Positions 3,902-53,966 of a stretch of 55,580 bases of DNA are shown here, piece by piece. The stretch's first letter is position 1, and every line of letters begins with the position of its first letter. Where the stretch lies: the NCBI GenBank assembly GCA_029881655.1, contig JAOUME010000002.1, forward strand, positions 1 to 55,580, given 5' to 3'. This stretch comes from Deltaproteobacteria bacterium. Its GTDB lineage: Bacteria > SAR324 > XYD2-FULL-50-16. Made by a program: the position numbers and the translations under genes. The notes under the pieces were generated by a model. It made no database searches. It was not told the DNA's origin and saw only the letters and a list, made by a program, of their open reading frames with translations.

Positions 3902-4309
3902 TATATACTCCCATCCCGATTTATAAGACAATTACCAGAAAGAATCAGGTTGCTATCTTCACTTCGAATTAAACAAATAGAACTCTGATTCTTGGTTTCT
4001 ATAATATTATACAGGCTTTATTTTGAATGCGTAAAGAGTAGATGACATAATAAAATTTGAGTTGGGAGTTTTTGAGGTCAAGTATATTTTAATAACTGTA
4101 GACGCAAAGACTTTACTTTGATGACTGTTGTATTGATTAGCTAGTTATTTCAGGATGTCTGTTGAGTGTAAGCTTCATCTTGCCAAATGAAACCAATCCC
4201 CGAGCTTCAATAGTCGATCAATCCGATGACGTAATCGGTTTTCCGCGGATTGATCGATAAAAGTTCCGAGGCTTGCTTTAAACCTTGGCTTTCTCAGGTC
4301 AGGATTTCA

Positions 4310-4507
4310 TTAAACATAAACGATAATCAAGACCATTGCCGGTATCACGATAGCCCAAAAGGGAGCCGTGTTGATAAACAATCCATAAACCGAATTTGGA
4401 TCATGTTCGACCTCCAGGAAGTCCAGGATTCTTTCTGAGAGCGGCTTTAATGGTTTTCTCTTTTGAGCCGTGGAAACAAAATGATTTTTTTCAGCGATAG
4501 GTGACAT
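4310..4507 (-). CDS. hypothetical small tail-anchored membrane protein
   Basis: The 65-aa ORF ends in a hydrophobic segment (FWAIVIPAMVLIIVYV). It has a weak GGA-type RBS and no recognisable family. Confidence 0.25.
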   Translation of the reverse strand: MSPIAEKNHFVSTAQKRKPLKPLSERILDFLEVEHDPNSVYGLFINTAPFWAIVIPAMVLIIVYV

Positions 4508-5005
4508 CTGTTATCCTATCTTAAGGTTAGCGAAATATAGCTTAAGGAAACAAAATAGGGGGGACTATAAAAGAGAAATTACCAAGGAAGTGATAACACC
4601 CCCCAGTCTTTAAGGACAAATTAAGTATAGCAATAAGCTGAGCCATTTTCAAGATTTTTACAGTTAAATAATAGTCCATAATAGGCTTAGATCAATCAAA
4701 AGATAATCTGGAATAATTGTATATCTTGATGATTCCTGTCAGTTCTGATACTAAGCTAAGTCTTTTTTCTTCTCAAATTAAATTTAACGCATAAAATTTA
4801 CTTCTACCGATCGGTATATCAATTCAACAAAATAACGTGAATATTAAGAGAAAATCGATTCTCAGCAGAATGAATGGCCAAAAAACAATCAGGCATTGTA
4901 TGATCAAAATTAAGCAAGCAGTAGCCTTATTTTAAAAGACCTGATAAGTATTCAAAAAAGCTAATACAGCAATTCCTGAACAATCTAAAAATTTTAGGAC
5001 CTGTC

Positions 5006-6361: not shown

Positions 6362-6374
6362 ACAACATCCATTT

Positions 6375-7964: not shown

Positions 7965-7967
7965 GCC

Positions 7968-8615
7968 ATGAAACGATTCTTAACGCTGGATGCCACTCTG
8001 CTGTCTTTTTTTGTTTTGTCATTGCTGGTTTTTATTTTGGCGTCTGAGGAAAAAGTTACTGCGCAGGTTAATTTCCACGCTTCGGTGATGGCCAACACGG
8101 ATTTGATCGAGGGTCGCTTTCCTGGCCTGGAGTATACCTTCTTTTTCGGTCCAAGCTGGGGAGTACGCTATAGTATGCTTCCCACCATGGAATTTAAAAC
8201 CGAACCTTTGAAAACCCTATCGGATGGTCAGTTGCAGACCTATAGTTTGACGGGTGAGTATCAAAGCTTAACGGTTTTAAGATCTATTGAACACAGGGGA
8301 AACAGACCCGGATCAAAGGGACCCTTTGAATTCATAACAGCTTATTTCGGAGTCGGATACAACCAGATTAATACCCAACTTGTAAAAAAAACCTTTACCG
8401 CTCAGTCCAACATCTGGTCTGAAAGTGAAACCTCAGAAGATTTGCCCACCGAAATCAACAATTTTTCCCTAGGCCTATATGGTGGAGAGAGCTTTATCAT
8501 GCTTGATACAAGATTTCTCTATTTCACAGGGAAAACCGACAAATCACGACTCCTTGACGATAAAATAAAATTCAAACAATGGATGATTCTTTTCTCAATA
8601 GGGATCGGTTTTTGA
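7968..8615 (+). CDS. hypothetical outer-membrane beta-barrel-like protein
   Basis: It has an N-terminal signal-like hydrophobic segment and alternating beta-strand-like pattern. The C-terminus is GIGF with a terminal Phe, typical of OMPs. Confidence 0.45.
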   Translation: MKRFLTLDATLLSFFVLSLLVFILASEEKVTAQVNFHASVMANTDLIEGRFPGLEYTFFFGPSWGVRYSMLPTMEFKTEPLKTLSDGQLQTYSLTGEYQSLTVLRSIEHRGNRPGSKGPFEFITAYFGVGYNQINTQLVKKTFTAQSNIWSESETSEDLPTEINNFSLGLYGGESFIMLDTRFLYFTGKTDKSRLLDDKIKFKQWMILFSIGIGF

Positions 8616-8721
8616 ATAACCATTTCAAAATTAAATAGGGAAATTAATTCCAATAGAAACAAATTCCCTATTTAAAAAGAAAATTGGTTTGATGAAACAC
8701 TTTACCTAATCGGATCATTGG

Positions 8722-11109
8722 ATGAAAAAAATCAGTCTTTGGGCAACTAGACTTCGGCATAATGGCCTGTTTCAGACATCTCTGGGTTTTGTATCCTTTT
8801 TGGTGGTTGCGGCGGCAGTCATGCTGCTTCTGGAATCAACGATCAATGATAGCGGGATTGATAGTTTTTTCCATTCCCTTTGGTTTTCCGTAGTAACGGT
8901 TACGACGGTCGGGTACGGAGATCTTTCACCGGTTTCTGGCGTAGGTAAGATCGCAGCCGTTGTCATTATGTTCATAGGTATTGCCTACTCAGGAGTTTTA
9001 ACGGGTAATATCACCACTTGGCTAGTCGAGAGAAACCGCAAGAAAGAATTGGGACAGGTCCCCTTAAAGGGGCTTGATTCCAAGTTTTTGATCTGTGGAT
9101 GGAAACCGGATATGCACAGCTTGCTGTATGATATTTTGCGGACTCATAACAAGACTTCTGATTATCTAATCCTGGTCAATAAAGCTGACCCAAAAGCCGT
9201 AAATGAGTTAAAACAAGACCCGCATCTAAAAGACCTTCAGTTTTTTAGTGGGGACTACACCAATCCCGAAATCCTCGAAAACGCTTGTGCCAAGAACGCC
9301 GAGAAAGTTCTGATTGTCGCTGATGACAGTTCAAACAGGGGTACAGAAGAAATCGATTTTCAATCCGTCTTATCGGCAATGGCGATTAATCGCATAAATA
9401 AGGATGTTTATACGGTCGTTGAGATTCTTATGCCGAAATTCCAGCTTTATCTTCAGCAGATAAAAGTGGAGGAAGTCGTCCTGAATCGGTTGAGATCCAA
9501 AGCTTTGATGTGTAACGCGGCCTTGATGTCGGGTGTCTATAATATTTGTCACAGTCTGTTTAACCTGGAAAACGGTCTTTTGAAAATCCGTGAAATTAAA
9601 TCTCACTTGGTCGGGAAAAGTTACCGCGAAGTTCAAGGCAGTATTGATGATGTCGTGATTATCGGGGTGATGGAAAACACTGGTAACCTTAAAATCAGAA
9701 AAAAGGAAAAGCTGGATTTGATCCAAAAATCACCTTCAATTAAGGACGCGATTTCAGGGCTTTTCTCGCTAAAAGAAATGAAAAACAATCAACCGATTAT
9801 CCATCCGCCACCCAATTACGTCATTCAGGAAAACAGCTCGCTGATCATTCTGGAAACAAGACCTGAGGTCCTTCATCAGCCGTTTGACTACTCAATGGCC
9901 CAACTCAAGCAAGATAAAATAATATCCACACTGGAAAACGTGATCTTTCATAAGTTTCAGGACTTAATCGATAAGGCGAACAACTGGGATGATTTTATCC
10001 ACCTTTTTCTAAAAGGAAACTTTCATTTTTCAGTAGCTGAGGGTGAAGTTAAAGGTTTTATTTATCAAGAAAAATCCTACAGTTTCGAAGCGCTGGGATT
10101 TAAAGATAATATCATCCATGAAGTCAACCTGCTTTATCAGATCAACACATTAAAGATCGAACAAGAGGTTGCAGCACTTAAAAAAAACCAGATGAAGTTT
10201 AAGACCTTTAAATCTAAATGGATCAAGCAGTTCGATACCGGACAGGAAAGCCAGCTTACTGGTGATGGAATTTTGATGATTTGCGGTTGGAAATCAGAAT
10301 TGCTAAAAATGTTGAAATTTCTGGTCGAGCAGGCTGAAAATAATACGCTTGAGTGGAACAAGATCATCGTCGTCGCTGATATCAATATAGAAGATACCCA
10401 GCGCTTCATTATCGAATTCGAACAAAAAGATAATATCGAACTGGTCAGAGGTGACTATCTTGATTCCCAGGTTCTAAGGGAAGCGGGTATTCACAAGGCA
10501 ACCAAGGTGATGGTACTTGCCGAGACCGATTCGAAAAAAACAATAGAAGAAATAGATGCCCAGACGGTTTTGGCTTCGATGGTGATCAACGATCTCAATA
10601 AACATGCCTATAAGGTAGTCGAAATCATGGATCAGCGATATGAATCAACTCTGGTGCAAGCGAATGTTGAGGAGATCATTTTGGTGGATAAATTTAACAG
10701 GATCATGTTGGTCAACGGTTCCAGCGGCATGGGTATTTCCAATGTCATCCGTGAAATGATCAATTTCGATACACCTCTCTTTGAGGTTTTGGAAATCGAG
10801 GAACGGTTCATCGGTGATAATTTCGGTAAGATGAGTTTCGATTTGAATTGTCCGGGCTTGATGATTTTGGGATTGTTGGAGGAGTCAGGAAACGTCTACG
10901 CCAGAAAACTGGAGAGAATCAAGCAGGCTCAAGTCCAGCCCAAAATCAAGGACTCAGTCATGAACCTGAACAAGGTCAAAGCTGTCGGCGCGAATCATGT
11001 TATTTTCGCCCCGGAAGCTGAATATAAGATCCGACCTCATACCAAGATGATCGTCCTTAATACCAACGATTATTCGCGCTGGAAGGATTATCTAAGCGAC
11101 ATCAGCTAA
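8722..11109 (+). CDS. two-TM potassium channel with two tandem RCK/TrkA-like domains
   Basis: The selectivity filter TVGYGD lies between two TM segments. Two cytoplasmic repeats each open with ICGWK (FLICGWKPD and LMICGWKSE) and contain VLIVADD/VMVLAETD. Confidence 0.8.
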   Translation: MKKISLWATRLRHNGLFQTSLGFVSFLVVAAAVMLLLESTINDSGIDSFFHSLWFSVVTVTTVGYGDLSPVSGVGKIAAVVIMFIGIAYSGVLTGNITTWLVERNRKKELGQVPLKGLDSKFLICGWKPDMHSLLYDILRTHNKTSDYLILVNKADPKAVNELKQDPHLKDLQFFSGDYTNPEILENACAKNAEKVLIVADDSSNRGTEEIDFQSVLSAMAINRINKDVYTVVEILMPKFQLYLQQIKVEEVVLNRLRSKALMCNAALMSGVYNICHSLFNLENGLLKIREIKSHLVGKSYREVQGSIDDVVIIGVMENTGNLKIRKKEKLDLIQKSPSIKDAISGLFSLKEMKNNQPIIHPPPNYVIQENSSLIILETRPEVLHQPFDYSMAQLKQDKIISTLENVIFHKFQDLIDKANNWDDFIHLFLKGNFHFSVAEGEVKGFIYQEKSYSFEALGFKDNIIHEVNLLYQINTLKIEQEVAALKKNQMKFKTFKSKWIKQFDTGQESQLTGDGILMICGWKSELLKMLKFLVEQAENNTLEWNKIIVVADINIEDTQRFIIEFEQKDNIELVRGDYLDSQVLREAGIHKATKVMVLAETDSKKTIEEIDAQTVLASMVINDLNKHAYKVVEIMDQRYESTLVQANVEEIILVDKFNRIMLVNGSSGMGISNVIREMINFDTPLFEVLEIEERFIGDNFGKMSFDLNCPGLMILGLLEESGNVYARKLERIKQAQVQPKIKDSVMNLNKVKAVGANHVIFAPEAEYKIRPHTKMIVLNTNDYSRWKDYLSDIS

Positions 11110-11110
11110 T

Positions 11111-12220
11111 TTAGAAACCCACAGCTTGATAGATCGAACCTGGCTTTGAGATGATCAATCCTTTCATCACCAGCGGCGTGATCAAGGCCAGTACTTTGTG
11201 AATCGGCATATCGAGTTTTGTGGCGATCAAGTCTTGGTTAAGGCTTTCTTTTTCCAATAAAGCCAAAATCGCCTCCTCTTCCTTTGAAATACCCAGCCGG
11301 CTAAAATCAAGCTGTTGGTTTTCCACTGCCTGCGGATTGATTTTTTGGTGTCCCACCAGATCCTGGTAAAGATCCTCGGGTGTCAAGACGAGCTTGGCCG
11401 AGCCATCCTGGAGCAGACGGTTGTTACCCAGGTAACTTGAGATATCCGCATTGCCGGGCATCGCGAAAAGCTTTCTCTCCTGCTCCAAGGTATACTTGGC
11501 CGAAATCAAAGCTCCGCTGCTTTCGGATGCCTCGACCACCATCAACCCCTTCGACATCCCACTGATGACGCGGTTTCTTAAGGGAAAATGACCGGCTGTC
11601 GGATTGGTCAGTGTTGAAAACTCGGAAATGACAGCTCCATTTTCGGAAATGGCCTCAAAGAGCTTTTGGTTTTGTCTGGGATAAACATTTAAAAGACCTC
11701 CCGCGAGCACAGCCACCGTTTTAAGTCCGAACTCAAGAGCCGCCTTATGCGCCTCGGTATCGATGCCCAACGCCAGTCCGCTGACTATCACGATACTAGA
11801 GTCCATTTCGGCAAGTCCCCTAATCAGTTTACGGCAAAAAATTTTCCCGTTATAAGTCGCCTTTCTTGCGCCGACAAAGGCGACCGGAAGTCCCTGATTA
11901 AAATCGAGTTGCCCCTTCACAAAAAGTAGCGGGGGTGGCGCGAAAATGCTTTTAAGTAAGGCCGGATAATCATCCGAACGAATTTCGATCAGGCGGATAC
12001 CGTGTTTCTCAAGCCTTGATTTTTCCTGAAGATGTTTCTCCGAACCCAAGGTCTTCTTGATCCCATAAGCATGTTGAGTGGTGATTCCCTGAATTTGAAC
12101 AAGATCCTGAACCTCGGCCTCAAAAACGTTTTCTATTGAGCTGAATTTATCCAGAAGCCTCATCACCCGACGTGGCCCGAGTCCGGGGATTAAGTTTAAA
12201 GCCAGCCAATGATCGGTCAT
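11111..12220 (-). CDS. dprA: DNA-processing protein DprA
   Basis: The Rossmann-like DprA core SGLALGIDTEAHKAAL is present, with a C-terminal winged-helix-like tail. Length is 369 aa. Confidence 0.85.
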   Translation of the reverse strand: MTDHWLALNLIPGLGPRRVMRLLDKFSSIENVFEAEVQDLVQIQGITTQHAYGIKKTLGSEKHLQEKSRLEKHGIRLIEIRSDDYPALLKSIFAPPPLLFVKGQLDFNQGLPVAFVGARKATYNGKIFCRKLIRGLAEMDSSIVIVSGLALGIDTEAHKAALEFGLKTVAVLAGGLLNVYPRQNQKLFEAISENGAVISEFSTLTNPTAGHFPLRNRVISGMSKGLMVVEASESSGALISAKYTLEQERKLFAMPGNADISSYLGNNRLLQDGSAKLVLTPEDLYQDLVGHQKINPQAVENQQLDFSRLGISKEEEAILALLEKESLNQDLIATKLDMPIHKVLALITPLVMKGLIISKPGSIYQAVGF

Positions 12221-40662: not shown

Positions 40663-41928
40663 CTACTGGTCCTTGTTGCTTAATGGAAACAGCAGTTCCA
40701 GTCTTGTTCCCTTGTCAGGCTCTGATTCGACCAGGATGGTTCCACCGTGGGAGTTCATGGTCTTGACAACAATCGACAAGCCCAAGCCAGTACCTTGTTC
40801 CTTGGTAGTAAAGAAAGGATCGAAAAGCCGTCGGCGTACATCTGCCGTCATACCTTTTCCATTATCTTCAAAGCGGATAATCAATAGCTTGATGGATTGG
40901 TTTTCGGTGATCATCCGGTCCTTAAAGCGCTCAATCAGGACAGGGTCCTTTTCGATTTTATTGTCAGTGGAAATAACGAGGGTGCCCCCCTCGCTCATGG
41001 CCTGACAAGCGTTCATGAAAAGATTTTGCAATATCTGTTTTATCAATTCCTGGTTGCCCAGGATATGATCGTTTTTCGCGCTGAAAAGGGTCTTGATCTG
41101 GATATCTTGTTTTTCGGCAAAATGGCGGGAAAATTCGACAAAGTTTTCCAGCAAGGCATGTACGTCAACTTGTTCCATGGTGATCGGCTTCGGCCTCGTA
41201 TATTCCAGGAGATTCGAGATGATATGGTTCATGCTTTCGATTGCCGATGTGATATGGAGGATCAATTCCATTTCGCCGCTTTCTGGAGCGAAGTCCTTTT
41301 TCATCATGGAGACGAAAAGCTTTATGCTGCCCAAGGGATTCCGAATCTCATGGGCCACCTGCATTGCGATCTCTCCCATGGCGGTCAGCCGGTTTTTTCT
41401 CTCGGCTTCTTCTTTTAACCTTTTTAAAAAAGTGATGTCGTTTAAATTGATGATGATTCCCTGCTTTTCCTTTTCTTCTGATTCCATCAGGGTCGTCGAG
41501 GTTTCAATGGTAATTAACTCACCTTTTGGTTTATGGTAGCTAAACTCTTTCTTATTGTCCCTGTTGAGGAGTTCAAGAGAATTTTCATCCAGGGGTTCGG
41601 GTAGCACCTCGTAATTAAACAATTGGTTGATCGATACTCCCAGAGCCTTTTCGGGTTGGATTTCCGTTATGGACGCCGCGGCTCGGTTAAAGGTGCGGAT
41701 TTGTCCTTGCAGATCCGTGACGATCAATCCATTGGAGAGGCTTTGAAGGACATTGGTCAACTCCTGGTTTTTTAAGTTGAGCTCGCTGTTGAGGTGTTTA
41801 ACTTGTTTTTCGAGTTTGACCTGATAGGTCCTTAACTTCTCGATCGAACTATTGAAAGCCTCGAAAGCACGGCTGAGGATTTTTTTTTCTTCTAGGTTGA
41901 CTTCACTGATGCCGATCTTTTTATCCAT
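40663..41928 (-). CDS. cytoplasmic sensor histidine kinase (coiled coil + PAS + HisKA + HATPase), NtrB/FlrB-like
   Basis: The H-box HEIRNPLGSI, N-box NLFMNACQAM, G1 DNGKGM and G2 GTGLGLS are present. There is no TM segment and no adjacent response regulator. Confidence 0.85.
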   Translation of the reverse strand: MDKKIGISEVNLEEKKILSRAFEAFNSSIEKLRTYQVKLEKQVKHLNSELNLKNQELTNVLQSLSNGLIVTDLQGQIRTFNRAAASITEIQPEKALGVSINQLFNYEVLPEPLDENSLELLNRDNKKEFSYHKPKGELITIETSTTLMESEEKEKQGIIINLNDITFLKRLKEEAERKNRLTAMGEIAMQVAHEIRNPLGSIKLFVSMMKKDFAPESGEMELILHITSAIESMNHIISNLLEYTRPKPITMEQVDVHALLENFVEFSRHFAEKQDIQIKTLFSAKNDHILGNQELIKQILQNLFMNACQAMSEGGTLVISTDNKIEKDPVLIERFKDRMITENQSIKLLIIRFEDNGKGMTADVRRRLFDPFFTTKEQGTGLGLSIVVKTMNSHGGTILVESEPDKGTRLELLFPLSNKDQ

Positions 41929-42164
41929 TTTTTCTGAATTAAAATAATCTTATATCAATCGATTCTTATTTGATTAATTGATTTCTCCTGACGCATTATT
42001 GTCGATGAGGGTTCATTTCGTCAAATAGAACAAAAACCTTTATCCGCGTAACAATTTGAGTTGAACAGTGCAGGATATTTGTATATTCTAATTTATATAA
42101 AAGGCGATTAATTTTTGAATTGTCTATGTTGTTTAAATCAATAGTCATCATAACAAGAGAGAAT

Positions 42165-43364
42165 ATGGGAAAAGTATTAATCTATACCAAAGGGTATTGT
42201 TCTTATTGCGTTGCCGCAAAAAATTTATTCGATAAAAAAAAAGTACCCTACGAGGAGATTCGCATTGACGAGCATCCCGAGCAAAAAGAAACCATGGTCG
42301 AGAAATCAAGAGGCCGAAAAACGGTGCCACAGATTTTTATTAATGATCAGCATATAGGTGGATGTGATGATCTATTCGAATTGGAAAATCAGGGCAAGCT
42401 AAACGCCCTTTTAGAAACTGAGGAGGCCGAGGCCAAGATCCAACACCGCAGGGTCATCATCTTGGGAACTGGTCCTGCAGGCTATACGGCCGCAATTTAT
42501 ACGGCCAGAGCAAATCTTAATCCTTTGATTTTTTCGGGTCCGCAAAAGGGGGGGCAGTTGACGACCACGACTGAAGTGGAGAATTTTCCCGGTTTTGAAA
42601 ACGGTATCGATGGCAATGAACTGATGAACAATATGGAAAAACAAGCCAAACGATTTGACACGGAAATTGTTTTTGGTGAAATCACCAAGGTTGATCTTTC
42701 CAAAAAGCCCTTTCTTCTTTATCAGAACAACGAGGTTTTCTCCTGCGACAGTCTGATTATAGCGACTGGCGCGACCGCCAAATATCTGGGTCTTGAAAGT
42801 GAGGATCGTTTTAAAAACCGCGGCGTGTCGGCTTGCGCGACTTGCGATGGCTTTTTTTATAAAGGCCAAAAGGTGGCTGTGGTCGGTGGTGGGGACACCG
42901 CCTTGGAGGAGGCTGCTTATTTGACCAATTTTTGCGAAAGGGTGTTTTTGATTCACCGCAGGGACGAGCTCAGGGGCAGCAAAGCGATGCAGGATCGGGT
43001 TTTGGCCAACGAGAAAATTGAGATTGTCTGGGATTCGGTGATTGAAGAGGTGCTTGGGGATGATCAGCAGGGCATGACCGATCTCACGGTTAAAAATGTC
43101 AAGACAGGCCAAATCAAACCACTGGGCGTGAAAGGGCTTTTCGTCGCCATCGGGCACAAACCCAACACCGATCTCTTCAAAGGGGTTCTGGATATGGATG
43201 CCAGCGGATATCTCCTGCCGAGTCCAGGAAGCTGCAAGATGAATATTGATGGCGTTTTCGCCTGTGGAGATGTCATGGATAGCCATTATCGTCAAGCTAT
43301 TACAGCCGCAGGGATGGGTTGTATGGCAGCGATCGATACTGAGCGTTGGCTTGCCGGGCAATAA
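42165..43364 (+). CDS. trxB: glutaredoxin-thioredoxin reductase fusion protein
   Basis: The N-terminal Grx has CSYC, TVPQIFI and GGCDD. A low-Mr TrxR follows with GTGPAGYTAA, the redox CATC and the NADPH motif HRRDELR. I place the start at ATG 42165; the ORF track begins at TTG 42120. Confidence 0.85.
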   Translation: MGKVLIYTKGYCSYCVAAKNLFDKKKVPYEEIRIDEHPEQKETMVEKSRGRKTVPQIFINDQHIGGCDDLFELENQGKLNALLETEEAEAKIQHRRVIILGTGPAGYTAAIYTARANLNPLIFSGPQKGGQLTTTTEVENFPGFENGIDGNELMNNMEKQAKRFDTEIVFGEITKVDLSKKPFLLYQNNEVFSCDSLIIATGATAKYLGLESEDRFKNRGVSACATCDGFFYKGQKVAVVGGGDTALEEAAYLTNFCERVFLIHRRDELRGSKAMQDRVLANEKIEIVWDSVIEEVLGDDQQGMTDLTVKNVKTGQIKPLGVKGLFVAIGHKPNTDLFKGVLDMDASGYLLPSPGSCKMNIDGVFACGDVMDSHYRQAITAAGMGCMAAIDTERWLAGQ

Positions 43365-45302: not shown

Positions 45303-46937
45303 ATGGCAGAACAAACAGCGAACTTTGTAGCGGATTTTCAAACGCAATTTCAGAATTTTTTCCAGGGCTTATCCATCGGGAAAAAAATCTTTCTGTTTAC
45401 AAGTTTGGGGTCGATTCTTCTTGGGTTGGCAGCGTTTATCTTTTTTTCGCAACAAGTAACCTGGGCTCCTCTGGTCAATGGTCTCAATCAGGAAGACGCG
45501 TCCAAAGTCGTGCAGAAACTGGATGAATTGAACATCAAATACATTCTTCAGCCAGGTGGCGGCTCAATCATGGTGGCAGGTGAGGATGTTGACAGGGTCC
45601 GCCTGCAAATCGCTTCAACCGGAATTCAGATGGGCGGCCTGGTCGGTTATGAGATTTTCGATAAAAACAACCTGGGCGCAACCGAGTTTCAACAGAAAAT
45701 CCAGTATAAAAGAGCTTTGGAAGGGGAGTTGTCGAGGTTAATCACCAAGATCAAGCAGATCAACAAGGCTAAGGTATCCCTTGCGATACCAGAGAAATCA
45801 CTGTTTGTTGACGAGCAAAATAAGCCCACCGCATCAGTGGTTCTGGAGATTGCAGGAGGTCAAAGACTCTCCCAATCGGGGATCATGACCATATTGAATC
45901 TGGTATCAGGCGCGGTTGAGGGGATGAGCATTGATGGCGTTAAGATAGCCAATCAAAACGGCAAATTGCTCTCTAAAGGTTTAACCGACCCGGACGGATC
46001 GGATCTCAGGGATAAAAACCATCACTATCAGGTCACCGTTGAGAAAAGACTTGAAGAAAAACTAATCACCCAGTTGGAAAAAGTAACAGGAAAAGACCGG
46101 GTTGAGGTCCGGGTATCTTTAGCGTTGGATTTTGACTCCAGCGAGATCACCGAGGATCTGGTGGATCCCGACAGTTCGGCTGTTTTAAGCGAAGAAGCGC
46201 TCAACGAGAGCATGACCGGATCAAGGTCCATACCGGTCGGCGTTCCAGGTGTCACGTCCAATTCCCCTGAAGTCAGGGCAGGCGCCAGTGAAATCGCCAA
46301 CGTATCGGATTCCAATAAAAAAACCAAGAGAACCAACTATGTCAACAGCAAGAGCCATATCGTCCGTAAAAAATCCGCAGGAGCGATCAAAAGAATGAGC
46401 GTGGCGGTGCTTTTGGATGGAATCTATGAGTATGTTCGTGATGAAAGCGGTGAGATTACAGGAAAGGAGCCGGTTTATAATCCCTGGTCGCCCAAGGACT
46501 TGGAGATTATCGAACAAATCGCCAAGCAGACCGTGGGTCTTAACGAAAAAAGAGGCGATACCATAACGGTACAAAATATCCGTTTTACCAAGCCTTTGGT
46601 TGAACAGGAAAAGTTAAAACAACAAAACCGTGAAACCACTAGAAAATTTATTATCGATTTGGTACGTTATGTCTTAGTCGGAGCGATCATCGTGGTCTTA
46701 GTTTTCATGGTCATCAGACCGATGGTGATGAAATTGTCAGCCAAGCCGGAAGATCTGGATCTGTTGATGGGACTGCCAACCACGATCGGAGAACTCGAAG
46801 GCGAAGAACTCGAAATCCCGACGGAAAAGGAAACGGGGATACCGCCGCGAGACAAGATTATCGATATCGCGAGACAAGATCCGCTCAAGACCGCTTCTTT
46901 GGTGCGTACATGGTTGCGTGAGAAAAAAGGCCCTTAA
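45303..46937 (+). CDS. fliF: flagellar MS-ring protein FliF
   Basis: The 544-aa protein has N- and C-terminal TM segments flanking a large periplasmic region. Its position after fliE supports the call. Confidence 0.85.
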   Translation: MAEQTANFVADFQTQFQNFFQGLSIGKKIFLFTSLGSILLGLAAFIFFSQQVTWAPLVNGLNQEDASKVVQKLDELNIKYILQPGGGSIMVAGEDVDRVRLQIASTGIQMGGLVGYEIFDKNNLGATEFQQKIQYKRALEGELSRLITKIKQINKAKVSLAIPEKSLFVDEQNKPTASVVLEIAGGQRLSQSGIMTILNLVSGAVEGMSIDGVKIANQNGKLLSKGLTDPDGSDLRDKNHHYQVTVEKRLEEKLITQLEKVTGKDRVEVRVSLALDFDSSEITEDLVDPDSSAVLSEEALNESMTGSRSIPVGVPGVTSNSPEVRAGASEIANVSDSNKKTKRTNYVNSKSHIVRKKSAGAIKRMSVAVLLDGIYEYVRDESGEITGKEPVYNPWSPKDLEIIEQIAKQTVGLNEKRGDTITVQNIRFTKPLVEQEKLKQQNRETTRKFIIDLVRYVLVGAIIVVLVFMVIRPMVMKLSAKPEDLDLLMGLPTTIGELEGEELEIPTEKETGIPPRDKIIDIARQDPLKTASLVRTWLREKKGP

Positions 46938-46960
46938 GTCTAACCCTTTGTTAAAGGTCA

Positions 46961-47884
46961 ATGGAAACCTACAAACCGCCTGTTTTCGATAGAGATTCTG
47001 ATAATTCAGGGGAATCAGCCGACTTTAAGCCTTTCGATACAGGGGATGCTAGCGGCCAGGCCGAGATGTTCGAGGCGGATGTTCTCTCTGAAGACAAAAA
47101 AGCCAGACCCGCTAAAAAAGAGTTCGTCACCTTTACTTCCAAACAATTCAATGAGGAAGGGACTCTTTTAACCAACGTCGAGGAGTACACCAAAAAAATC
47201 CAGATTGAGGCGGAGAGCCATGTCCGCCTTGTCCGCAATGAAGTGGACCTGATAAAATCAGAAATCGAGTTGGAACTCGCTAACGCCATCATCAAAAGAA
47301 GAGCTGCCGAAGAGGAAGCCCAAAAAATCGTTCAGGAAGCTGAAAACTCAAGGGAAGAAGTCATCAAAGCCGGTACGGAAAAAGGGTTCAAGGCTGGTTT
47401 CGAGGATGGCTTAAAACAGTTTAAGCAACAAAACGAACAAAACACCCAAGAGATCCTGAATCTTTTAAACGATATGAAAAAGCTGAGGCAAACCCTGCTT
47501 CAAAAACACGAACAAAACTTCGTCAACCTAAGTACTCTCATCGCTAAAAAAATCGTTCATAAGCACCTTGCCACCAATAAGGCCGCCATATTGAACATGT
47601 TGAAAAAAAATATCAGCCGGCTTGATGGAATGGGTCTCGTCACGATTTCTCTTAATCCAGACGAATATAATTTTATCGCACAGTATCAAAGCGAACTATC
47701 TACTTTTTTAGGGGAAGATCAGGTTATCAAGCTTAAAATCAATCCTGAGGTACAGTCTGCCGCGCCCCTGATCGAGACGGACTTCACCGTCATCGACCTG
47801 GATATCAAAAAACAGTTTAAGGAGGTTGATAAACTCTTTGATACTCTGGTTGAAGACCGAAAAGGGCTTTTTAAACTTTCTTAG
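46961..47884 (+). CDS. fliH: flagellar export regulator FliH
   Basis: A charged coiled-coil N-half is followed by GFKAGFEDGLKQ and a C-terminal domain (ISLNPDEY ... IETDFTVIDLDI). It lies immediately upstream of fliI. Confidence 0.7.
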   Translation: METYKPPVFDRDSDNSGESADFKPFDTGDASGQAEMFEADVLSEDKKARPAKKEFVTFTSKQFNEEGTLLTNVEEYTKKIQIEAESHVRLVRNEVDLIKSEIELELANAIIKRRAAEEEAQKIVQEAENSREEVIKAGTEKGFKAGFEDGLKQFKQQNEQNTQEILNLLNDMKKLRQTLLQKHEQNFVNLSTLIAKKIVHKHLATNKAAILNMLKKNISRLDGMGLVTISLNPDEYNFIAQYQSELSTFLGEDQVIKLKINPEVQSAAPLIETDFTVIDLDIKKQFKEVDKLFDTLVEDRKGLFKLS

Positions 47885-47935
47885 CTATAAACCGAAGCAG
47901 TAATACATTCCTCGCGACAAACGATAAAGGTAATC

Positions 47936-49264
47936 TTGTTCGATATAAAAGCCTATTTTGACGCAGTCGAGAATCAAAAATCAGCTCCGCTTCATGGGAA
48001 AGTGGAAGAGGTTATCGGTTTTTTGATCAAGGCTCATAATCCAGGACTTAATATCGGCAGCAGTTGTGAGATACTCAACCCCGAGACTGGTGAGACTCAG
48101 TTGGGCGAGGTCGTAGGTTTTAAGGAGGGCAAGATTCTGGTCATGCCCATCGGTGATATAAGGGGCATCGGACCACATAACCATATCATCCCTTCGCGGG
48201 ACCGGTCTTTTGTTTACGTCGGCGATGAATTGCTGGGAAGGTCCATTGACGGACTTGGAGAACCGATTGATGGACTGGGACCCCTTAACTGCGAAAAAAA
48301 AGTCAGGATGTACAAAGATCCCATCAATCCTCTCCATCGAAGAAGAATCGACAGCTCACTCGATGTCGGCATCAAGTCCATTAACGGGGTTTTAACCTGT
48401 GGGAAAGGCCAGAGACTCGCGATCCTGTCTGGCTCAGGTGTCGGAAAATCGGTCTTGCTGGGGATGATGGCCAGAAATACCACGGCTGACGTGAATGTGA
48501 TTGCTCTGGTCGGGGAAAGAGGACGTGAAGTCAAGGAATTCATCGAAAAGGATTTGGGTCCCGAGGGATTGAAACGCTCTGTAGTCGTAGTGGCAACCTC
48601 AGATCAATCACCCTTAGCCCGAATTCGAGCGGCCTACATCGCCACATCGGTAGCGGAATATTTCAGGGAAGAGGGTAAGGACGTTTTGTTGATGATGGAC
48701 AGCGTCACCCGTTTTGCGATGGCTCAAAGAGAAGTCGGGCTCGCGGCGGGAGAACCTCCCACGACCAAAGGTTATCCGCCGTCTGTTTTCTCACTGCTCC
48801 CCAAACTTCTTGAAAGAGCCGGTAATTCGAAATCCAAGGGCTCGATCACCAGTTTTTATTCGGTGCTGGTCGAGGGGGATGACCCCAACGACCCCATTGG
48901 AGATGCCGTGAGATCGATCGTTGATGGACACATATTGCTGGACCGTGAAATCGCCGCCATGGGACATTATCCTGCCATCGATGTTCTGCGCTCAAGAAGC
49001 AGGGTAATGGTGGATGTCGCACCAGAGACCCACCAACTCAACGCCAAAAGACTGATCCAGACCTATTCGATTTATAAGGAAGCTGAGGATTTAATTAATA
49101 TCGGTGCTTATGTTAAAGGATCAAATCCTAAAATTGATTATTCAATTAGAAAAATCAATGAGATAAATCGGTTTTTACAGCAGGCGATCAGTGAAAAATT
49201 CACGATGATTGAATGCGAAGCTGTGCTGGAACAAATATTTCAGGATTTTCCTAATGATTTTTAA
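47936..49264 (+). CDS. fliI: flagellum-specific ATPase FliI
   Basis: Walker A GSGVGKS and Walker B LLMMDSVTR are present. The 442-aa protein has a TTG start. Confidence 0.9.
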   Translation: MFDIKAYFDAVENQKSAPLHGKVEEVIGFLIKAHNPGLNIGSSCEILNPETGETQLGEVVGFKEGKILVMPIGDIRGIGPHNHIIPSRDRSFVYVGDELLGRSIDGLGEPIDGLGPLNCEKKVRMYKDPINPLHRRRIDSSLDVGIKSINGVLTCGKGQRLAILSGSGVGKSVLLGMMARNTTADVNVIALVGERGREVKEFIEKDLGPEGLKRSVVVVATSDQSPLARIRAAYIATSVAEYFREEGKDVLLMMDSVTRFAMAQREVGLAAGEPPTTKGYPPSVFSLLPKLLERAGNSKSKGSITSFYSVLVEGDDPNDPIGDAVRSIVDGHILLDREIAAMGHYPAIDVLRSRSRVMVDVAPETHQLNAKRLIQTYSIYKEAEDLINIGAYVKGSNPKIDYSIRKINEINRFLQQAISEKFTMIECEAVLEQIFQDFPNDF

Positions 49265-49951: not shown

Positions 49952-50929
49952 ATGAGTTCGATAAGACGCAAAAGAAGGAACAATCGGTTTTTATTTTTTT
50001 TCTTGGTGACGCTTCCCTTTTTAGTCATTATCTTCACTGTAGGCGGTTACCTGTTTCTAAATGTAAATGAAACATACCGAGCAAAGGGGTGCGAACCGCT
50101 TAAGAAGGATGTGATTCAACCGTTTGATTTCGAGGAGCAGCAGGACATCCGTTTTGCGGCGATTGGAGACGCTGGGACCGGTGACGAGGCTCAGAAAAGG
50201 ATTGCTCAATCCCTTGAGAAGGTCTGTCTCTTAAAAGGATGCAATTTCGTATTAATGTTAGGAGATAATTTTTATCCTGACGGTATCCATTCGGTTACAG
50301 ATGATCAGTTCAAGGAAAAATTCGAGGATATCTATAGAAATTTCAAGATCCCTTTTTTCGCGGTTTTAGGTAACCATGATGTTCATGGAGATCCAAATGC
50401 CCAACTGTACAGAAGCCTTAATAGCGAGGTTTGGCGCATGCCGAATTTCTATTACCTTTTTAATGCCGGCCCCGCCAGTTTTTTAGGATTGAACTCGAAC
50501 TGTTCCCCCTTTAACTGGAAAGAGCAACAAGCAAAACTGGCCAAGGAAAAAACACCTTGGAAATTCGTTTTTGGACATCATACTATCTACAGTAGCGGCA
50601 CACACGGCAACGCGAATGTTTTATTAAGGGGACTTTGGCAGTACTATTTCGAAGAGGATGCCGATTTTTATATATCGGGTCATGACCATCAATTGGAACA
50701 TCTTCAGGTAAAGGGACAAAAGACACATTTTATCGTAAGCGGCGCTGGCGGGAAAAATTACAGTTCGCTTTCTGAAAGAAAAAAAACCAACAAACATAAC
50801 AGCAACTCTAAATTTATCTATCAAAATAATGGATTTGTGCTATTTGAGGTTGCGAAAAAACAGGTTCTGGTTGATTTCTTCGATGGAGACGGAAAGAGCC
50901 TGTATCAGTTTAAACAAATCAAGAAATAA
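49952..50929 (+). CDS. membrane-anchored metallophosphoesterase (purple-acid-phosphatase-like)
   Basis: It has an N-terminal TM segment and the motifs GDAGTGD, GDNFY, GNHD and GHDH. Confidence 0.8.
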   Translation: MSSIRRKRRNNRFLFFFLVTLPFLVIIFTVGGYLFLNVNETYRAKGCEPLKKDVIQPFDFEEQQDIRFAAIGDAGTGDEAQKRIAQSLEKVCLLKGCNFVLMLGDNFYPDGIHSVTDDQFKEKFEDIYRNFKIPFFAVLGNHDVHGDPNAQLYRSLNSEVWRMPNFYYLFNAGPASFLGLNSNCSPFNWKEQQAKLAKEKTPWKFVFGHHTIYSSGTHGNANVLLRGLWQYYFEEDADFYISGHDHQLEHLQVKGQKTHFIVSGAGGKNYSSLSERKKTNKHNSNSKFIYQNNGFVLFEVAKKQVLVDFFDGDGKSLYQFKQIKK

Positions 50930-50949: not shown

Positions 50950-51957
50950 ATGTTCCGTAAGTTATCTAGAAGGGAATTTCTGAAGGGAATTGCTGTTGGG
51001 AGTTTAACCGCGCCCATGCTACTGAGTGGTTTTTCAGAAATTCTGCTGGCCCAATCGGAAGTTGAAAGGCAAAATATTATCTGGTTGCATGCCCAGTCCT
51101 CACGGGTTCATCAGTCGATGATCTTTAGTTTGCCCGATTTGCTGGATCTTTTCCAGAAGCGCTTTAATGTATTGAATTACGAACACTTAAAAAATCTGGC
51201 CAAGGAAGGTGACACGGATAAATTTGAGAAAACGCCCATTTTGATATTGGAGGGATATTTTCCCCATGAAAATGTCAAACCTCAAGATAACCTTTTGACC
51301 CAATTGATAAACGTCTCAAAGACCGTGATCATGTTGGGTAGTGAGGCTTCCTACAGCGCAAATGCCCCAGAGGGATTTTCTGACTTGGAAAAAGAATCTC
51401 TCACCCACACCACAACCCCTTTCATCCGACTACCTGGAATGCCCGTTCATTCTAGGCATTTGCTCGGGACGTTAAATCATCTACTTTTATATGGTTTCCC
51501 GGAACTGGATGAATACCGCAGACCGACCATGTTTTATAGCGAGAAAATTTGTGTAAGATGCGAGTACAACAGCGATTTTAATGCGGGAAACTTCGTCAGT
51601 CATTTTGGTGAAAAGGAAGGTTGCCTGTATCTTTTGGGTTGCAAGGGAAAGGTGACTTACAACTCTTGTCCGGTTGAGAAGTCCAATGGTACCATGAGTT
51701 GGTGCGTCAGTGCGGGGTCACCCTGTATTGGCTGTTCCGAGCCCATTTATCCCGATCATTCCGGCCTGGGATTATTTGGGCAGATAAGCAAGGATAAAGC
51801 GGGGGTTAATTCCGCTTTGATCCGCCATCTCAATGAGATCGCCTTAGGCGCGGTTGCCTTGACTGTCGGTGGCTTGACTTTCCATACTGCCAGCAAAAGA
51901 ATGTCTCTCCCATCCAGTATCGAAACTTCATTTACATACAGGGAAGACAAGGAATGA
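50950..51957 (+). CDS. [NiFe]-hydrogenase small-subunit homologue lacking proximal-cluster cysteines
   Basis: It keeps the Tat motif SRREFLK and a C-terminal TM anchor. It has eight Cys: KICVRC, EGCLYLLGCKG, YNSCP and SWCVSAGSPCIGC. The usual N-domain Cys sites instead read IIWLHAQSSRVHQS, IMLGSEASYS and RLPGMPV. Confidence 0.8.
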   Translation: MFRKLSRREFLKGIAVGSLTAPMLLSGFSEILLAQSEVERQNIIWLHAQSSRVHQSMIFSLPDLLDLFQKRFNVLNYEHLKNLAKEGDTDKFEKTPILILEGYFPHENVKPQDNLLTQLINVSKTVIMLGSEASYSANAPEGFSDLEKESLTHTTTPFIRLPGMPVHSRHLLGTLNHLLLYGFPELDEYRRPTMFYSEKICVRCEYNSDFNAGNFVSHFGEKEGCLYLLGCKGKVTYNSCPVEKSNGTMSWCVSAGSPCIGCSEPIYPDHSGLGLFGQISKDKAGVNSALIRHLNEIALGAVALTVGGLTFHTASKRMSLPSSIETSFTYREDKE

Positions 51958-53420
51958 GCCAAACCTTAATTCAACAGTTTCAAAGAACCGAGGGTATTAT
52001 TGGTTTGACTCTGTTTGAGACCAAGGACCGAAGGCAGGTTGTTTTCAATAGCGGTCAAAGCACCCATCTTGAAGAGAAGCTCAAGGGCCGATATCCTTTG
52101 GAACCTATCCACCTGACTCAATTGCTTTCCTCTAAAAACGGGATTTTTCACGCTATGGCTTCAGTATTGGCGATTGAGGATTATTTCAAGCTCAAACCTA
52201 CCTTAATCGCCGGCCATATCCGCCAGTTAATGATGCAGATCGCGACCATTCATTCTCATATCCATCATTTTTACTGGGAGTCTCTGCCCAATTATCTTCA
52301 TCGAAAACATCTCGAAAAAGTTGAGAATAAAGACCTGGTTTATTTCCCGCGGTTGGTTGATAGGGATAAGGATTCGGGGGATCTTTCCATAAAAACCGGA
52401 GGTTCAATCCTCAAGCACGTTGCCATGGCAGCTGAAACGCTGAATGTTCTACAAAAAACCCTTGCGATTCTGGGTGGGAAGTATCCAATCGTCATGAATC
52501 TGATTCCAGGAGGGGTGACGAACTTTAAGAACGAAAAAGACAAGCTGATGATCATCTTAAACAAGCTGGAAAGGCTAAAACCTTTTATTGAGGAAGTCTG
52601 GCCCGCGGATGTCAAGCAGTTCACACAGGATATTCCAGAGACGACCAAAGTCATCTTTCCAAACTTAAATCTGATCAGTTTTGGTTCCGTGCCTGTGGAA
52701 AAAATAGCTGATCAATCAACAGGGCTTTATATATCAGGTGTCCTGATCGATGGTAAATTGGAGCCCTTAAACGATTTTAAAATAACCGAATCTTTTGACA
52801 ATACCTTTTATGTGCCGATCGACGAACAAGGGGAGCTGAACGCGGATCTGTATGATGTAAACAAGAAAGGAGCCTATACTTGGATTAAAAGCGCGCGCTA
52901 CGAAGGAGAAAGCATGCTGACGGGTCCTTTAGCCAGAATGATGATCACACATTTCGGTGGAGGAAACCTGGAAATCAGTGATAGTATCGGCCACATGATC
53001 AACAATCTCGGATTGACTTCCGACTCTTATAACTGTGTAGCCAGCCGGATGTTCGCTGAAGTTTTTGAAGCCAGATATCACTTGAAATCCATTTTCCATA
53101 GCCTTTTGGCGATCAACCAGCAGTCGGATCTTAATTTAAAACGGCCATTTGATTTCTCAGACGGGGGTACAGGAACCGGCAGGGTAGAAGCACCAGGCGG
53201 CTCTTTGATGCATCAGACCTACATTAAGGGTGATCAAATCATGCAATACCGGATTATCTCTCCCATGAACTGGAATTTTTCAACCAGGGATAAAAACAAT
53301 CGCTCAGGAATCGTTGAACGGGAAATGAACCACTTTTTTCAGGAAAACGAGCTTTCCGAATTCCAGGCGAACAGAGTTTTCACATCCTATTACCCACAGG
53401 CTCTTGATGGAACCCAGTAG
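51954..53420 (+). CDS. [NiFe]-hydrogenase large-subunit homologue lacking all Ni-Fe cysteine ligands
   Basis: Family landmarks are kept: RTEG, VLAIED, IHSHIHHFY, LGGKYP..IPGGV, GPLARM, EAPGGSLMH and ISPMNWNFSTRD. RxCGxCxxxH is replaced by LLSSKNGIFH, and DPCxxCxxH by YPQALDGTQ-stop. The whole protein has only one Cys. An ATGA overlap links it to the upstream gene. Confidence 0.8.
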   Translation: MSQTLIQQFQRTEGIIGLTLFETKDRRQVVFNSGQSTHLEEKLKGRYPLEPIHLTQLLSSKNGIFHAMASVLAIEDYFKLKPTLIAGHIRQLMMQIATIHSHIHHFYWESLPNYLHRKHLEKVENKDLVYFPRLVDRDKDSGDLSIKTGGSILKHVAMAAETLNVLQKTLAILGGKYPIVMNLIPGGVTNFKNEKDKLMIILNKLERLKPFIEEVWPADVKQFTQDIPETTKVIFPNLNLISFGSVPVEKIADQSTGLYISGVLIDGKLEPLNDFKITESFDNTFYVPIDEQGELNADLYDVNKKGAYTWIKSARYEGESMLTGPLARMMITHFGGGNLEISDSIGHMINNLGLTSDSYNCVASRMFAEVFEARYHLKSIFHSLLAINQQSDLNLKRPFDFSDGGTGTGRVEAPGGSLMHQTYIKGDQIMQYRIISPMNWNFSTRDKNNRSGIVEREMNHFFQENELSEFQANRVFTSYYPQALDGTQ

Positions 53421-53429
53421 CATAAAACC

Positions 53430-53966
53430 ATGGGAATTTATAATCTAAGCAACAAATATTACAATTCAATTCAAAAGAGGCTAAGGGTTTGGGGATTACC
53501 CTTTCTCCTATTAGTCGCCTACATTAGTGGTTTCGAGTTGGTCAGAGACAATCAGTTTCAAATATTAACCAGGATTCAACTTAGTTTTTTACATAGTCTC
53601 GGCGGTATTCTTGTTTCTCTTTTGTGGATAAGTTTGACCTATGATCTTGTTTTGAAAATTATTAGAAAGGAAAAAAAGATAGTGATGCAAAATGGAACGA
53701 GAAAGCTTGTTTTGATTCCTAGTTCGATTTATACCAAAAGAGACTGGGTCGATTTTTTGTTTTATTTTGTGCTTTTTATTCTTTGTCTGGTAGGTGTTCT
53801 GCTTTATTTAAGTCGGTGGGGAGGTATCGTTTTTTTTGATTCTCACGTCATTGCAATTTTACATCAGTTTATCGGCTGGACATTTATATCTTTGATTCTG
53901 GTGAAGTATTATTTATCCTTCACCTTGTGGTTTAAGAATTTGGTTCGGTATTTAAGAGAGTATTGA
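53430..53966 (+). CDS. small b-type-cytochrome-like membrane protein (Ni/Fe-hydrogenase cytochrome b family-like)
   Basis: The 178-aa protein has four hydrophobic segments. Histidines are kept in FLHSLGG and AILHQFIGW. The usual RxWHW reads RVWGL, and the second TM4 His position reads K. Confidence 0.55.
   Translation: MGIYNLSNKYYNSIQKRLRVWGLPFLLLVAYISGFELVRDNQFQILTRIQLSFLHSLGGILVSLLWISLTYDLVLKIIRKEKKIVMQNGTRKLVLIPSSIYTKRDWVDFLFYFVLFILCLVGVLLYLSRWGGIVFFDSHVIAILHQFIGWTFISLILVKYYLSFTLWFKNLVRYLREY

Follow-up and report, generated by a model that had tools for sequence, protein, structure and literature searches.

Positions 50950 to 53966 of a 55,580-nucleotide stretch of DNA from a Deltaproteobacteria bacterium (contig JAOUME010000002.1, assembly GCA_029881655.1; the whole stretch is called the window here) carry a three-gene module encoding homologs of a hydrogenase small subunit, a hydrogenase large subunit, and a four-helix cytochrome b. 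The module resembles a group-1 membrane-bound uptake [NiFe]-hydrogenase, and sequence comparison traces its descent to one, but it fails the tests that define the enzyme. As judged from their ligand positions, the encoded proteins are unable to ligate either a Ni-Fe center or a proximal iron-sulfur cluster through the canonical cysteines, so that H2 catalysis of the known kind would not be possible. Comparison of orthologs nevertheless indicates that strong purifying selection acts on the three genes in bacteria of the SAR324 group, and a module that is kept under such selection without its hydrogen-handling residues has presumably taken on a new job. The first-pass annotation of the window had proposed a repurposed pseudo-hydrogenase serving periplasmic electron transfer or sensing. 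The hydrogenase ancestry, the selection, and the lack of a functional hydrogenase stood up to analysis, but the electron-transfer or sensor role can still only be proposed, with no partner, substrate site, or regulator identified.

Missing ligands in the large and small subunits

The large subunit belongs to the hydrogenase fold. It matches PF00374 (Table 1), its top match in the Protein Data Bank (PDB) is 4kl8_L (4.6e-30), and it scores 191.6 bits on the hydrogenase model NF033181, which has a cutoff of 600. Its ligand positions were read against solved NiFeSe and NiFe hydrogenases and against Escherichia coli HyaB. The four positions that hold the Ni-Fe cysteines in the canonical enzymes are Ser, Asn, Gln, and Asp in the window protein, and all four cysteines are absent from each of the 32 large subunits of clade A and the 15 of clade B, the two clades that make up the family (see below). 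In HyaB numbering, the residues lost are C76, C79, C576, and C579, together with R74, R509, D574, and P575. R509 is the canopy arginine of the PRG motif; its position is Gly in the window protein, Gly, Ser, Thr, or Ala in clade A, and Ala or Ser in clade B. The chain ends at the position of the endopeptidase cleavage-site histidine, here a Gln, and none of the sequences has a C-terminal tail. The clade B proteins also end at that position, and they read (S/G)xx(S/A/G) ... SxxD ... (H/Q) at the five positions concerned.

The replacements follow a pattern. Serine takes the place of the first cysteine throughout clade A (S59, 32/32) and in 11 of the 15 clade B proteins, and an aspartate or glutamate takes that of the fourth in every member of both clades (D/E485 in 32/32 clade A proteins; 15/15 in clade B). 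All 15 clade B proteins and 30 of the 32 from clade A keep the proton-relay glutamate that corresponds to HyaB E28, and the histidine of the L1 motif and the Mg-site glutamate are kept as well. Between the first two cysteine positions there is a lysine in clade A and an aspartate in clade B. Altogether, 57 positions are invariant in 32 sequences. Few new signature residues are common to both clades (L163, Q167, and M181), and no new site was located among them by comparison without coordinates. The conserved Ser, Asp/Glu, and Glu at the former Ni-Fe site make a new function of the large subunit possible.

The small subunit is likewise a recognizable hydrogenase homolog, matching NiFe_hyd_SSU_C (PF14720; Table 1) and, under the cutoff, hydA (TIGR00391; 121.2 bits against 179.5), with an N domain that matches Oxidored_q6, the NuoB family, at 7.5e-4. 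When aligned with HyaA, the proximal-cluster positions Cys17, Cys19, Cys20, Cys115, Cys120, and Cys149 are found to be replaced by Ser, Val, His, Glu, Ala, and Met, respectively. None of these cysteines survives in the small subunits compared, 16 from clade A and 9 from clade B, of which the clade B protein of locus L026 is called truncated. Where HyaA has C115, most members of either clade have Glu or Asp, and two clade B sequences have Gln or Ala; C20 is replaced by His in most of clade A.

The C domain keeps eight cysteines, invariant in 33 sequences and in all small subunits of both clades. C201, C204, C225, and C231 belong to the distal site, where the histidine ligand is replaced by a cysteine, also throughout both clades. 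C240, C252, C259, and C262 belong to the medial site, where a fourth cysteine is present. This fourth cysteine is predicted to turn a [3Fe-4S] site into a [4Fe-4S] site, and the small subunit would thus keep two all-cysteine cubane sites. A twin-arginine motif is found in all clade A and most clade B small subunits. The exception is the L026 protein, which was called short: the L026 locus (4179-12206) is a clade B variant in which the small subunit was called at 266 amino acids, without the twin-arginine translocation (Tat) signal and the N-terminal part. H312, which lies in the C-terminal anchor helix, is near-invariant (at least 90% of 33 sequences). An AlphaFold2 model built from 33 family sequences shows a confident flavodoxin-like N domain, with predicted local distance difference test (pLDDT) values of 76 to 91 over residues 40 to 200, and a helix at residues 294 to 318. 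The best Foldseek matches of that model are group-1 small subunits (E of about 1e-13; TM scores of 0.5 to 0.64).

A cytochrome b with one candidate heme site

Hydropathy analysis of the third protein indicates four hydrophobic segments with a positive-inside topology. The window protein matches PF01292 (Ni_hydr_CYTB) with an E value of 0.005 and 17 bits, against a cutoff of 30.1. However, 11 of the 16 family members match PF01292, the best at 1.3e-10, and this is better evidence of homology than the weak hhalign comparisons of the family profile with single sequences (FdnI, E = 0.013; HyaC, E = 0.11). A protein homology search with the cytochrome b returned only the query itself, and the orthologs used here were taken from the loci and not from that search. 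A single-sequence AlphaFold2 model is weak (pLDDT 68; predicted TM score 0.39) and has four long helices; Foldseek gave no PDB match for it, which is uninformative on homology.

The window cytochrome b has three histidines in total, of which H55 and H145 are invariant and align with H57 and H155 of FdnI in an alignment with FdnI and HyaC. By hydropathy and the positive-inside rule, they lie 6 to 7 residues into transmembrane helices 2 and 4 (TM2 and TM4), counted from the periplasmic side. FdnI H18 and H169 have no counterparts, and in place of H169 there is a Lys or Arg, followed by Tyr-Tyr. We take H57 and H155 of FdnI to hold the periplasmic-side heme bP, and H18 and H169 to hold the cytoplasmic-side heme bC beside the menaquinone site; these assignments reportedly go back to the Fdh-N structure of Jormakka et al. 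from 2002 (PDB 1KQF). H55 and H145 would form one candidate bis-histidine heme site in the periplasmic leaflet, with the cytoplasmic-side pair lost. The placement of the retained pair on the periplasmic side comes from the topology argument and would stand on its own, independently of the FdnI assignments.

The first-pass annotation had read the module as missing the four Ni-Fe cysteines, the proximal-cluster cysteines of the small-subunit N domain, and two of the four heme histidines, and as keeping the eight medial and distal cysteines, the Tat signal, and the C-terminal anchor. Each of these readings was confirmed, with refinements: the catalytic arginine is lost along with the Ni-Fe cysteines, the large subunit stops at the position of the endopeptidase histidine, the eight cysteines correspond to two all-cysteine sites, and the retained histidine pair belongs to the periplasmic leaflet.

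Distribution, selection, and descent

A protein search with the large subunit returned about 59 proteins at 35 to 52% identity, followed by a sharp drop in score to true hydrogenases at 23 to 29% identity, and the search with the small subunit gave a similar pattern. In a scan of one genome per GTDB species, 15 further loci were found, all in metagenome-assembled genomes (MAGs) and with identities of 40 to 52%; with the window module they belong to clade A. Five of the genomes are labeled SAR324 cluster and one Candidatus Lambdaproteobacteria, the rest being labeled uncultured Pseudomonadota or simply "bacterium." The large-subunit and cytochrome b genes are intact and in the same order at all 15 loci, and the small-subunit gene is visible at 14, since the sequence of locus L011 begins within the gene for the large subunit. 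The 15 genomes agree in gene order and in translational coupling, and every ortholog examined carries the same ligand substitutions.

Ratios of nonsynonymous to synonymous substitution (dN/dS) were estimated by the Nei-Gojobori method for the closest pairs, at dS values of 0.9 to 2.2. They were 0.053 for the small subunit and 0.050 for the large subunit (pair L013-L014), 0.073 for the large subunit of the pair L008-L011, and 0.035 (L008-L011) and 0.087 (L013-L014) for the cytochrome b.

Two outlying small subunits, P0124 and P0125, led to locus L017, and an exhaustive profile search of 1.84 billion representatives revealed a sister clade that is more distant, at about 26% identity: clade B, which comprises about 15 clusters at 50% identity. 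Nine clade B loci were read (L017, L021 to L024, and L026 to L028, L022 ending within the large-subunit gene). All of them have genes for both hydrogenase-like subunits and, except for the cut L022, for a third protein of 160 to 223 amino acids, and the membrane subunits of this clade keep just the TM2 and TM4 histidines. The named clade B members are MAGs of a "SAR324 cluster bacterium" or a "Deltaproteobacteria bacterium."

A neighbor-joining tree of the 128 best-matching large subunits gave bootstraps of 50/50 for clade A, 49/50 for clade B, and 50/50 for the two together, although the tree is a rough one in which long branches and shared ligand columns could inflate support. P0189 alone is sister to both clades. 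The nearest true hydrogenases by distance are short group-1 "NiFeSe-type" enzymes of 460 to 520 amino acids; of seven tested on NF033181 (NiFeSe_hydrog), 4 pass the cutoff of 600 and the others score 392 to 543 bits, and the range given for true neighbors is 515 to 685. These comparisons indicate that the module descends from an operon for a short group-1 (NiFeSe-type), Tat-exported, membrane-bound uptake [NiFe]-hydrogenase. The parsimonious reading is that such a hydrogenase was converted once, long ago, in the SAR324 lineage and was then inherited vertically over a long time.

The view of the first-pass annotation that the module is not simply decaying agrees with these data, as the genes are intact in 15 genomes and a sister clade, with dN/dS of about 0.05. 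The search for orthologs with the same substitutions that it had suggested yielded those 15 genomes and clade B, with no random decay. Profile searches with the large-subunit, small-subunit, and cytochrome b families returned hydrogenase homology, and the module's proteins matched no characterized nonhydrogenase family in them. The annotation had also known of no equivalent derived from Tat-exported hydrogenases, and our full-text literature searches found no published description of such a family, which does not prove its absence from the literature. The papers on SAR324 or dark-ocean hydrogenases that were consulted mention only true group 1d, 1l, and 2a enzymes.

Comparison with known systems

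The module shares many features with the group-1 uptake hydrogenases that have a cytochrome b, such as E. coli HyaABC and the NF033181 enzymes. The small-subunit, large-subunit, and cytochrome b genes come in the same order and are likewise translationally coupled; both a Tat signal and a C-terminal anchor are present in the small subunit; and the folds correspond by PF00374, PF14720, and Foldseek. A four-cysteine medial site also occurs in P0126, P0127, and P0130, which among the small subunits of true hydrogenases came closest, and a short large subunit occurs in the NF033181 relatives. Unlike those enzymes, the module has no Ni-Fe cysteines, catalytic arginine, proximal cluster, or C-terminal extension, has a cysteine for the distal histidine, has one of the two heme histidine pairs, and has no hyp, protease, or nickel genes alongside. 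The cytochrome b compares similarly with the di-heme proteins FdnI and HyaC, sharing the four transmembrane helices and the TM2 and TM4 histidines but lacking equivalents of FdnI H18 and H169; the family proteins are also shorter, at 160 to 200 amino acids.

Hydrogenase-derived pairs without Ni-Fe cysteines are well known from the cytoplasmic group-4 lineage, in the NuoB/NuoD pair of the Q module of complex I and in the Ehr proteins, where they are reused in a membrane complex. NuoB/NuoD-type pairs keep only the proximal cluster (N2), beside a new quinone pocket at the old active site. The SAR324 module is like them in that a large- and small-subunit pair has lost its Ni-Fe cysteines and been kept within a membrane complex. 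It differs in being predicted to be Tat-exported and in deriving from group 1, to which all its top profiles and structures belong. Its pattern of cluster retention is the reverse of that in NuoB, with the proximal cluster dropped and the medial and distal clusters kept.

Other large subunits without the cysteines were found in Thermincola potens (WP_013121807.1), T. ferriacetica, a Desulfovibrionaceae bacterium (MGE4555286.1), and the P0189 lineage. Those of Thermincola and the Desulfovibrionaceae resemble the SAR324 proteins in belonging to PF00374, in being encoded after a Tat small subunit, and in being annotated as hydrogenase large subunits, but neither clade of the tree includes them. 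The small subunits of all these homologs, that of the P0189 lineage included, keep all the proximal, medial, and distal ligands, and those of Thermincola and the Desulfovibrionaceae have the distal histidine among them. The locus of the cultured Firmicute T. potens JR (CP002028.1; L029, 2726-10403) encodes a sigma-54 activator that contains an [FeFe]-hydrogenase-like domain, then the Tat small subunit and the 440-amino-acid large subunit, followed by a short Oxidored_q6 protein, a cytochrome b, HypA, and HypB; it may represent a sensory or a decaying hydrogenase. At L030 (4955-7485), from a Desulfovibrionaceae MAG, and at L025 (1034-3500), the large subunit has S, S, D, A, Q and S, S, N, A, H, respectively, at the ligand positions, and the small subunits there also keep all their ligands. 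Outside SAR324, therefore, the Ni-Fe site has repeatedly been lost on its own. Among the sequences compared, only the two SAR324-group clades combine that loss with those of the proximal cluster and the cytoplasmic-side (N-side) heme pair and with replacement of the distal histidine by cysteine.

Proposed function and alternative explanations

The reading that we favor, at a probability of about 0.5, is that the proteins form a truncated electron-transfer module between the membrane and a periplasmic donor or acceptor, with the large subunit required as a partner for structure or docking. From the Tat signal and the close pairing of the two subunits, we would expect export of a folded heterodimer, in which the small subunit would still carry a cofactor-less large subunit across the membrane by Tat hitchhiking. 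The C-terminal helix of the small subunit would insert beside the mono-heme cytochrome b, and the anchor helix and the cytochrome together point to a membrane-bound complex that faces the periplasm. With two all-cysteine cubane sites and one bis-histidine site on the periplasmic side (P-side), a three-center wire is conceivable, shortened to run from the P-side heme b to the distal and then the medial [4Fe-4S] cluster. This wire would link the membrane, through a quinone site or another membrane partner, to a periplasmic donor or acceptor encoded outside the module. The large subunit would not catalyze H2 chemistry but would lend the complex a structure that it cannot do without, or a surface for docking or ligand binding. 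Because the N-side heme pair is lost, any quinone chemistry would be expected on the P-side and nonelectrogenic, the link to quinone here being drawn from the FdnI assignments; the transmembrane redox-loop half of the ancestral enzyme would be gone with that pair.

Several points weigh against this proposal. Neither the module nor the loci compared revealed an electron donor or acceptor, a quinone site, or a partner. With the proximal cluster gone, the wire ends at the medial cluster, which is buried in the canonical enzymes, and there is no obvious periplasmic terminus. All-cysteine [4Fe-4S] clusters usually have low potentials, which fits electron flow toward quinone but needs a low-potential donor. 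Occupancy of the cluster and heme sites is inferred from their ligands only. The large subunit, moreover, is as constrained as the small subunit (dN/dS of 0.05; 57 invariant positions in 32 sequences), and this constraint and the patterned Ser, Asp, and Glu residues at the old active site appear to exceed what a passive scaffold would need.

The main rival reading, for which that constraint speaks, is that the complex is an enzyme of a new kind, with a new cofactor in the former Ni-Fe pocket or in the former proximal-cluster pocket of the flavodoxin-like N domain. Either a hard metal coordinated by Ser, Asp/Glu, and Glu or an organic molecule such as flavin could fill this place, and would make the complex a periplasmic oxidoreductase of a new type, donor:quinone or quinol:acceptor. 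The nonrandom choice of residues in the large subunit (Ser for the first cysteine, Asp/Glu for the fourth, and the E28 equivalent, L1 histidine, and Mg-site glutamate) speaks for such a site, as do the predominance in the small subunit of Glu/Asp at C115 and, in clade A, of His at C20, the confident fold of its N domain in the AlphaFold2 model, and the retention of Tat export, which fits a folded cargo loaded with cofactor. However, no known cofactor-binding motif or profile was matched; apart from the acidic residues, the positions differ between the clades, as with the Lys of clade A and the Asp of clade B between the first two cysteine positions; the old Ni-Fe pocket would be far from the medial cluster unless the proximal site is filled; and the polar replacements may merely fill the void left by the metals. 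We regard an enzyme of this kind as possible but rather unlikely. In its fullest form, the idea would be one of SAR324-wide periplasmic redox enzymes, in which a new cofactor or substrate site, either a carboxylate- and serine-ligated metal at the Ni-Fe pocket or an organic cofactor at the seat of the proximal cluster in the N domain, is wired through two [4Fe-4S] clusters to the single P-side heme b, possibly in connection with motility. This elaborated form is speculative, and we would not bet on it; if true, it would parallel, in the periplasm and with a new substrate, the transition from hydrogenase to complex I.

Explanations that dispense with redox catalysis or with a new function fare worse. 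A structural or signaling part of the periplasm or membrane, possibly tied to the flagellum or chemotaxis, with clusters and heme that are structural or redox sensing, seems improbable to us. The module does adjoin motility genes in both clades, and the Cys-less large subunits of Thermincola, encoded beside a sigma-54 activator, make sensory reuse conceivable. But the adjacency can be inherited synteny, as the same array also contains coaE, vanY, and isochorismatase genes, and L001, L007, and L026 have no motility neighbors; nothing linked to the module has a kinase, receiver, or transducer domain, and the invariance of the eight cysteines and both histidines argues for working redox cofactors. 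That the complex is still a hydrogenase, activating H2 at a Ni-Fe or other center through unconventional oxygen or nitrogen ligands, is very hard to credit. Its fold, proton-relay glutamate, and Mg-site residues are kept, and its nearest relatives are true uptake hydrogenases, but the four thiolate ligands, the canopy arginine, and the electron-relaying proximal cluster are all missing. Cysteine-to-serine changes at Ni-Fe ligand positions abolish metal insertion. There is also no C-terminal extension for maturation dependent on Hyp proteins and a protease, there are no hyp genes in the window or at the related loci, and the NCBIfam hydrogenase scores are far under their cutoffs. Decaying pseudogenes, or sequencing or assembly errors in a true hydrogenase operon, would account for missing ligands and for a window without maturation genes, and have nothing else to recommend them. 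Genomes assembled independently from many samples agree in the substitutions, two deep clades share the pattern of loss, the reading frames are intact in 15 of 15 genomes, and dN/dS is 0.035 to 0.087 at dS values of 0.9 to 2.2. We consider this last explanation ruled out by the intact orthologs, the shared substitutions, and the low dN/dS.

Relevance to hydrogenase evolution and annotation

The module belongs to a family of the SAR324 group and is not a one-off. That a complex can lose its Ni-Fe site and yet be kept is textbook knowledge for the cytoplasmic group-4 lineage (complex I), and here it is found to have happened in a Tat-exported group-1 lineage. The family thus offers a second, independent natural experiment in the repurposing of a hydrogenase scaffold, and with its opposite choice of cofactors it would be a mirror image of the complex-I transition. 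The cofactor content that is predicted, Fe without Ni, two [4Fe-4S] clusters, and one heme b, is testable and makes the complex tractable for structural and biochemical work.

There is also a practical side. In NCBI and IMG, the large subunits are named "nickel-dependent hydrogenase large subunit" or "Ni,Fe-hydrogenase I large subunit," labels that are wrong, and surveys of the Pfam or KEGG type can therefore credit SAR324 with an H2 oxidation that these genes cannot provide. Many marine studies discuss SAR324 together with hydrogenases, and a check of four residues removes the error.

Gene layout, neighborhood, and other features of the window

The features of the module are collected in Table 1. 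The junction of the small- and large-subunit genes was read directly as GGAATGAGC and contains an ATGA overlap that translationally couples the two genes. The large-subunit gene ends in CAGTAG, and the ATG of the cytochrome b gene lies 9 nucleotides downstream. This is the three-gene order, overlap, and spacing that the first-pass annotation had described. It had also noted that the window has no hyp, maturation endopeptidase, or nickel transporter genes and that the flanks are a metallophosphoesterase gene and coaE, and both observations were repeated here. No hyp, endopeptidase, or nickel-transport gene is found among the window's open reading frames (ORFs) of at least 150 amino acids, and no hyp or protease gene is found in the window or at the related loci read. 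By profile search, the flanking genes encode an isochorismatase-family protein, a membrane-anchored metallophosphoesterase, CoaE, and a VanY-type peptidase. An Rfam scan of the window gave no matches, and consensus scans for a promoter or terminator belonging to the module found no more sites than in shuffled sequence.

Table 1 Coordinates of the module's genes and sequence features in the window
Feature	Position	Strand	Evidence or remark
Small-subunit homolog, 335 amino acids	50950..51957	+	PF14720, 1.9e-23; TIGR00391, 5e-35, under cutoff
Twin-arginine motif SRREFLK, small-subunit residues 6-12	50965..50985	+	TIGR01409, 18.6 bits vs cutoff 16.7
Eight invariant cysteines of the small-subunit C domain	51550..51735	+	Invariant in 33 sequences and all clade A/B small subunits
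C-terminal helix/membrane anchor, small-subunit residues 294-318	51829..51903	+	Alignment with HyaA anchor; AlphaFold2 helix
ATGA start/stop overlap of small- and large-subunit genes	51954..51957	+	Sequence read directly
Large-subunit homolog, 488 amino acids	51954..53420	+	PF00374, 2e-53 (2.1e-53)
L1 motif remnant LLSSKNGIFH, large-subunit residues 57-66	52122..52151	+	Canonical RxCGxCxxxH; Cys1 = Ser59, Cys2 = Asn62
L2 motif remnant SYYPQALDGTQ, large-subunit residues 478-488	53385..53417	+	Canonical DPCxxCxxH; Cys3 = Gln482, Cys4 = Asp485
Four-helix cytochrome b homolog, 178 amino acids	53430..53966	+	PF01292 in family; candidate bis-His H55/H145

Most clade A loci share the synteny fliF-fliH-fliI ... 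module ... (coaE)-vanY. The clade A module lies downstream of fliF-fliH-fliI on the same strand, with gaps of 9 to 55 nucleotides (45303-49264 in the window). At three clade B loci (L023, 1-4832; L027, 1-7099; L028, 2-1457), it lies beside fliA-flhG-flhF-flhA-flhB-fliR with a LexA-like gene between, and two further loci (L021, 15141-17867; L024, 1-832) have FlhF/FlhG-like or YcgR-like PilZ genes nearby. The adjacency to motility genes may reflect inherited synteny or a functional link. Neighbors otherwise differ, and no conserved extra or partner gene accompanies the module across the loci compared. In the window, FliF (544 amino acids) is followed directly by FliH (307 amino acids) at 45303-47884, with no fliG gene between, as is also the case at L002, L005, and L008; given this adjacency, FliG must be encoded elsewhere in the genome.

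The gene just upstream of the module (49952-50929) encodes a purple-acid-phosphatase-like protein with an N-terminal membrane anchor and the motifs GDAG, GDNFY, GNHD, GHH, and GHDH, a set that we take to be typical of purple acid phosphatases, including the Fe(III)-ligating tyrosine. This metallophosphoesterase was considered as a fourth subunit and ruled out, as it adjoins the module only in the window and at L009, L010, and L012 to L014, with unrelated genes upstream elsewhere.

Some neighbors at individual loci may be recorded. Downstream of the clade B module, on the same strand, is a gene for an ACOX-like acyl-CoA dehydrogenase of 616 to 619 amino acids at L023 (9571-11430), L027 (12220-14070), and L028 (6432-8285); at the clade A locus L001, the ORF just upstream (2789-3943) looks acyl-CoA dehydrogenase-like by eye only. 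The neighbors at L026 are genes for a NifU-like protein, frataxin (CyaY), and ALAD, a context of Fe-S and heme metabolism, together with a second weak Ni_hydr_CYTB gene.

The remainder of the window is ordinary chromosome, with genes for malic enzyme, MgtE, SerA, DprA, RpoN, PolA, glycogen phosphorylase, Lon, FliF, FliH, and FliI. An ORF at 42120-43364 encodes a glutaredoxin domain fused to a thioredoxin-reductase-like pyridine nucleotide-disulfide oxidoreductase, and adjoining it on the opposite strand is a gene for a PAS histidine kinase (40663-41928). The G+C content is 0.53 at positions 2001-4000, against about 0.42 elsewhere, and this segment coincides with the malic enzyme gene (2192-3931, minus strand).

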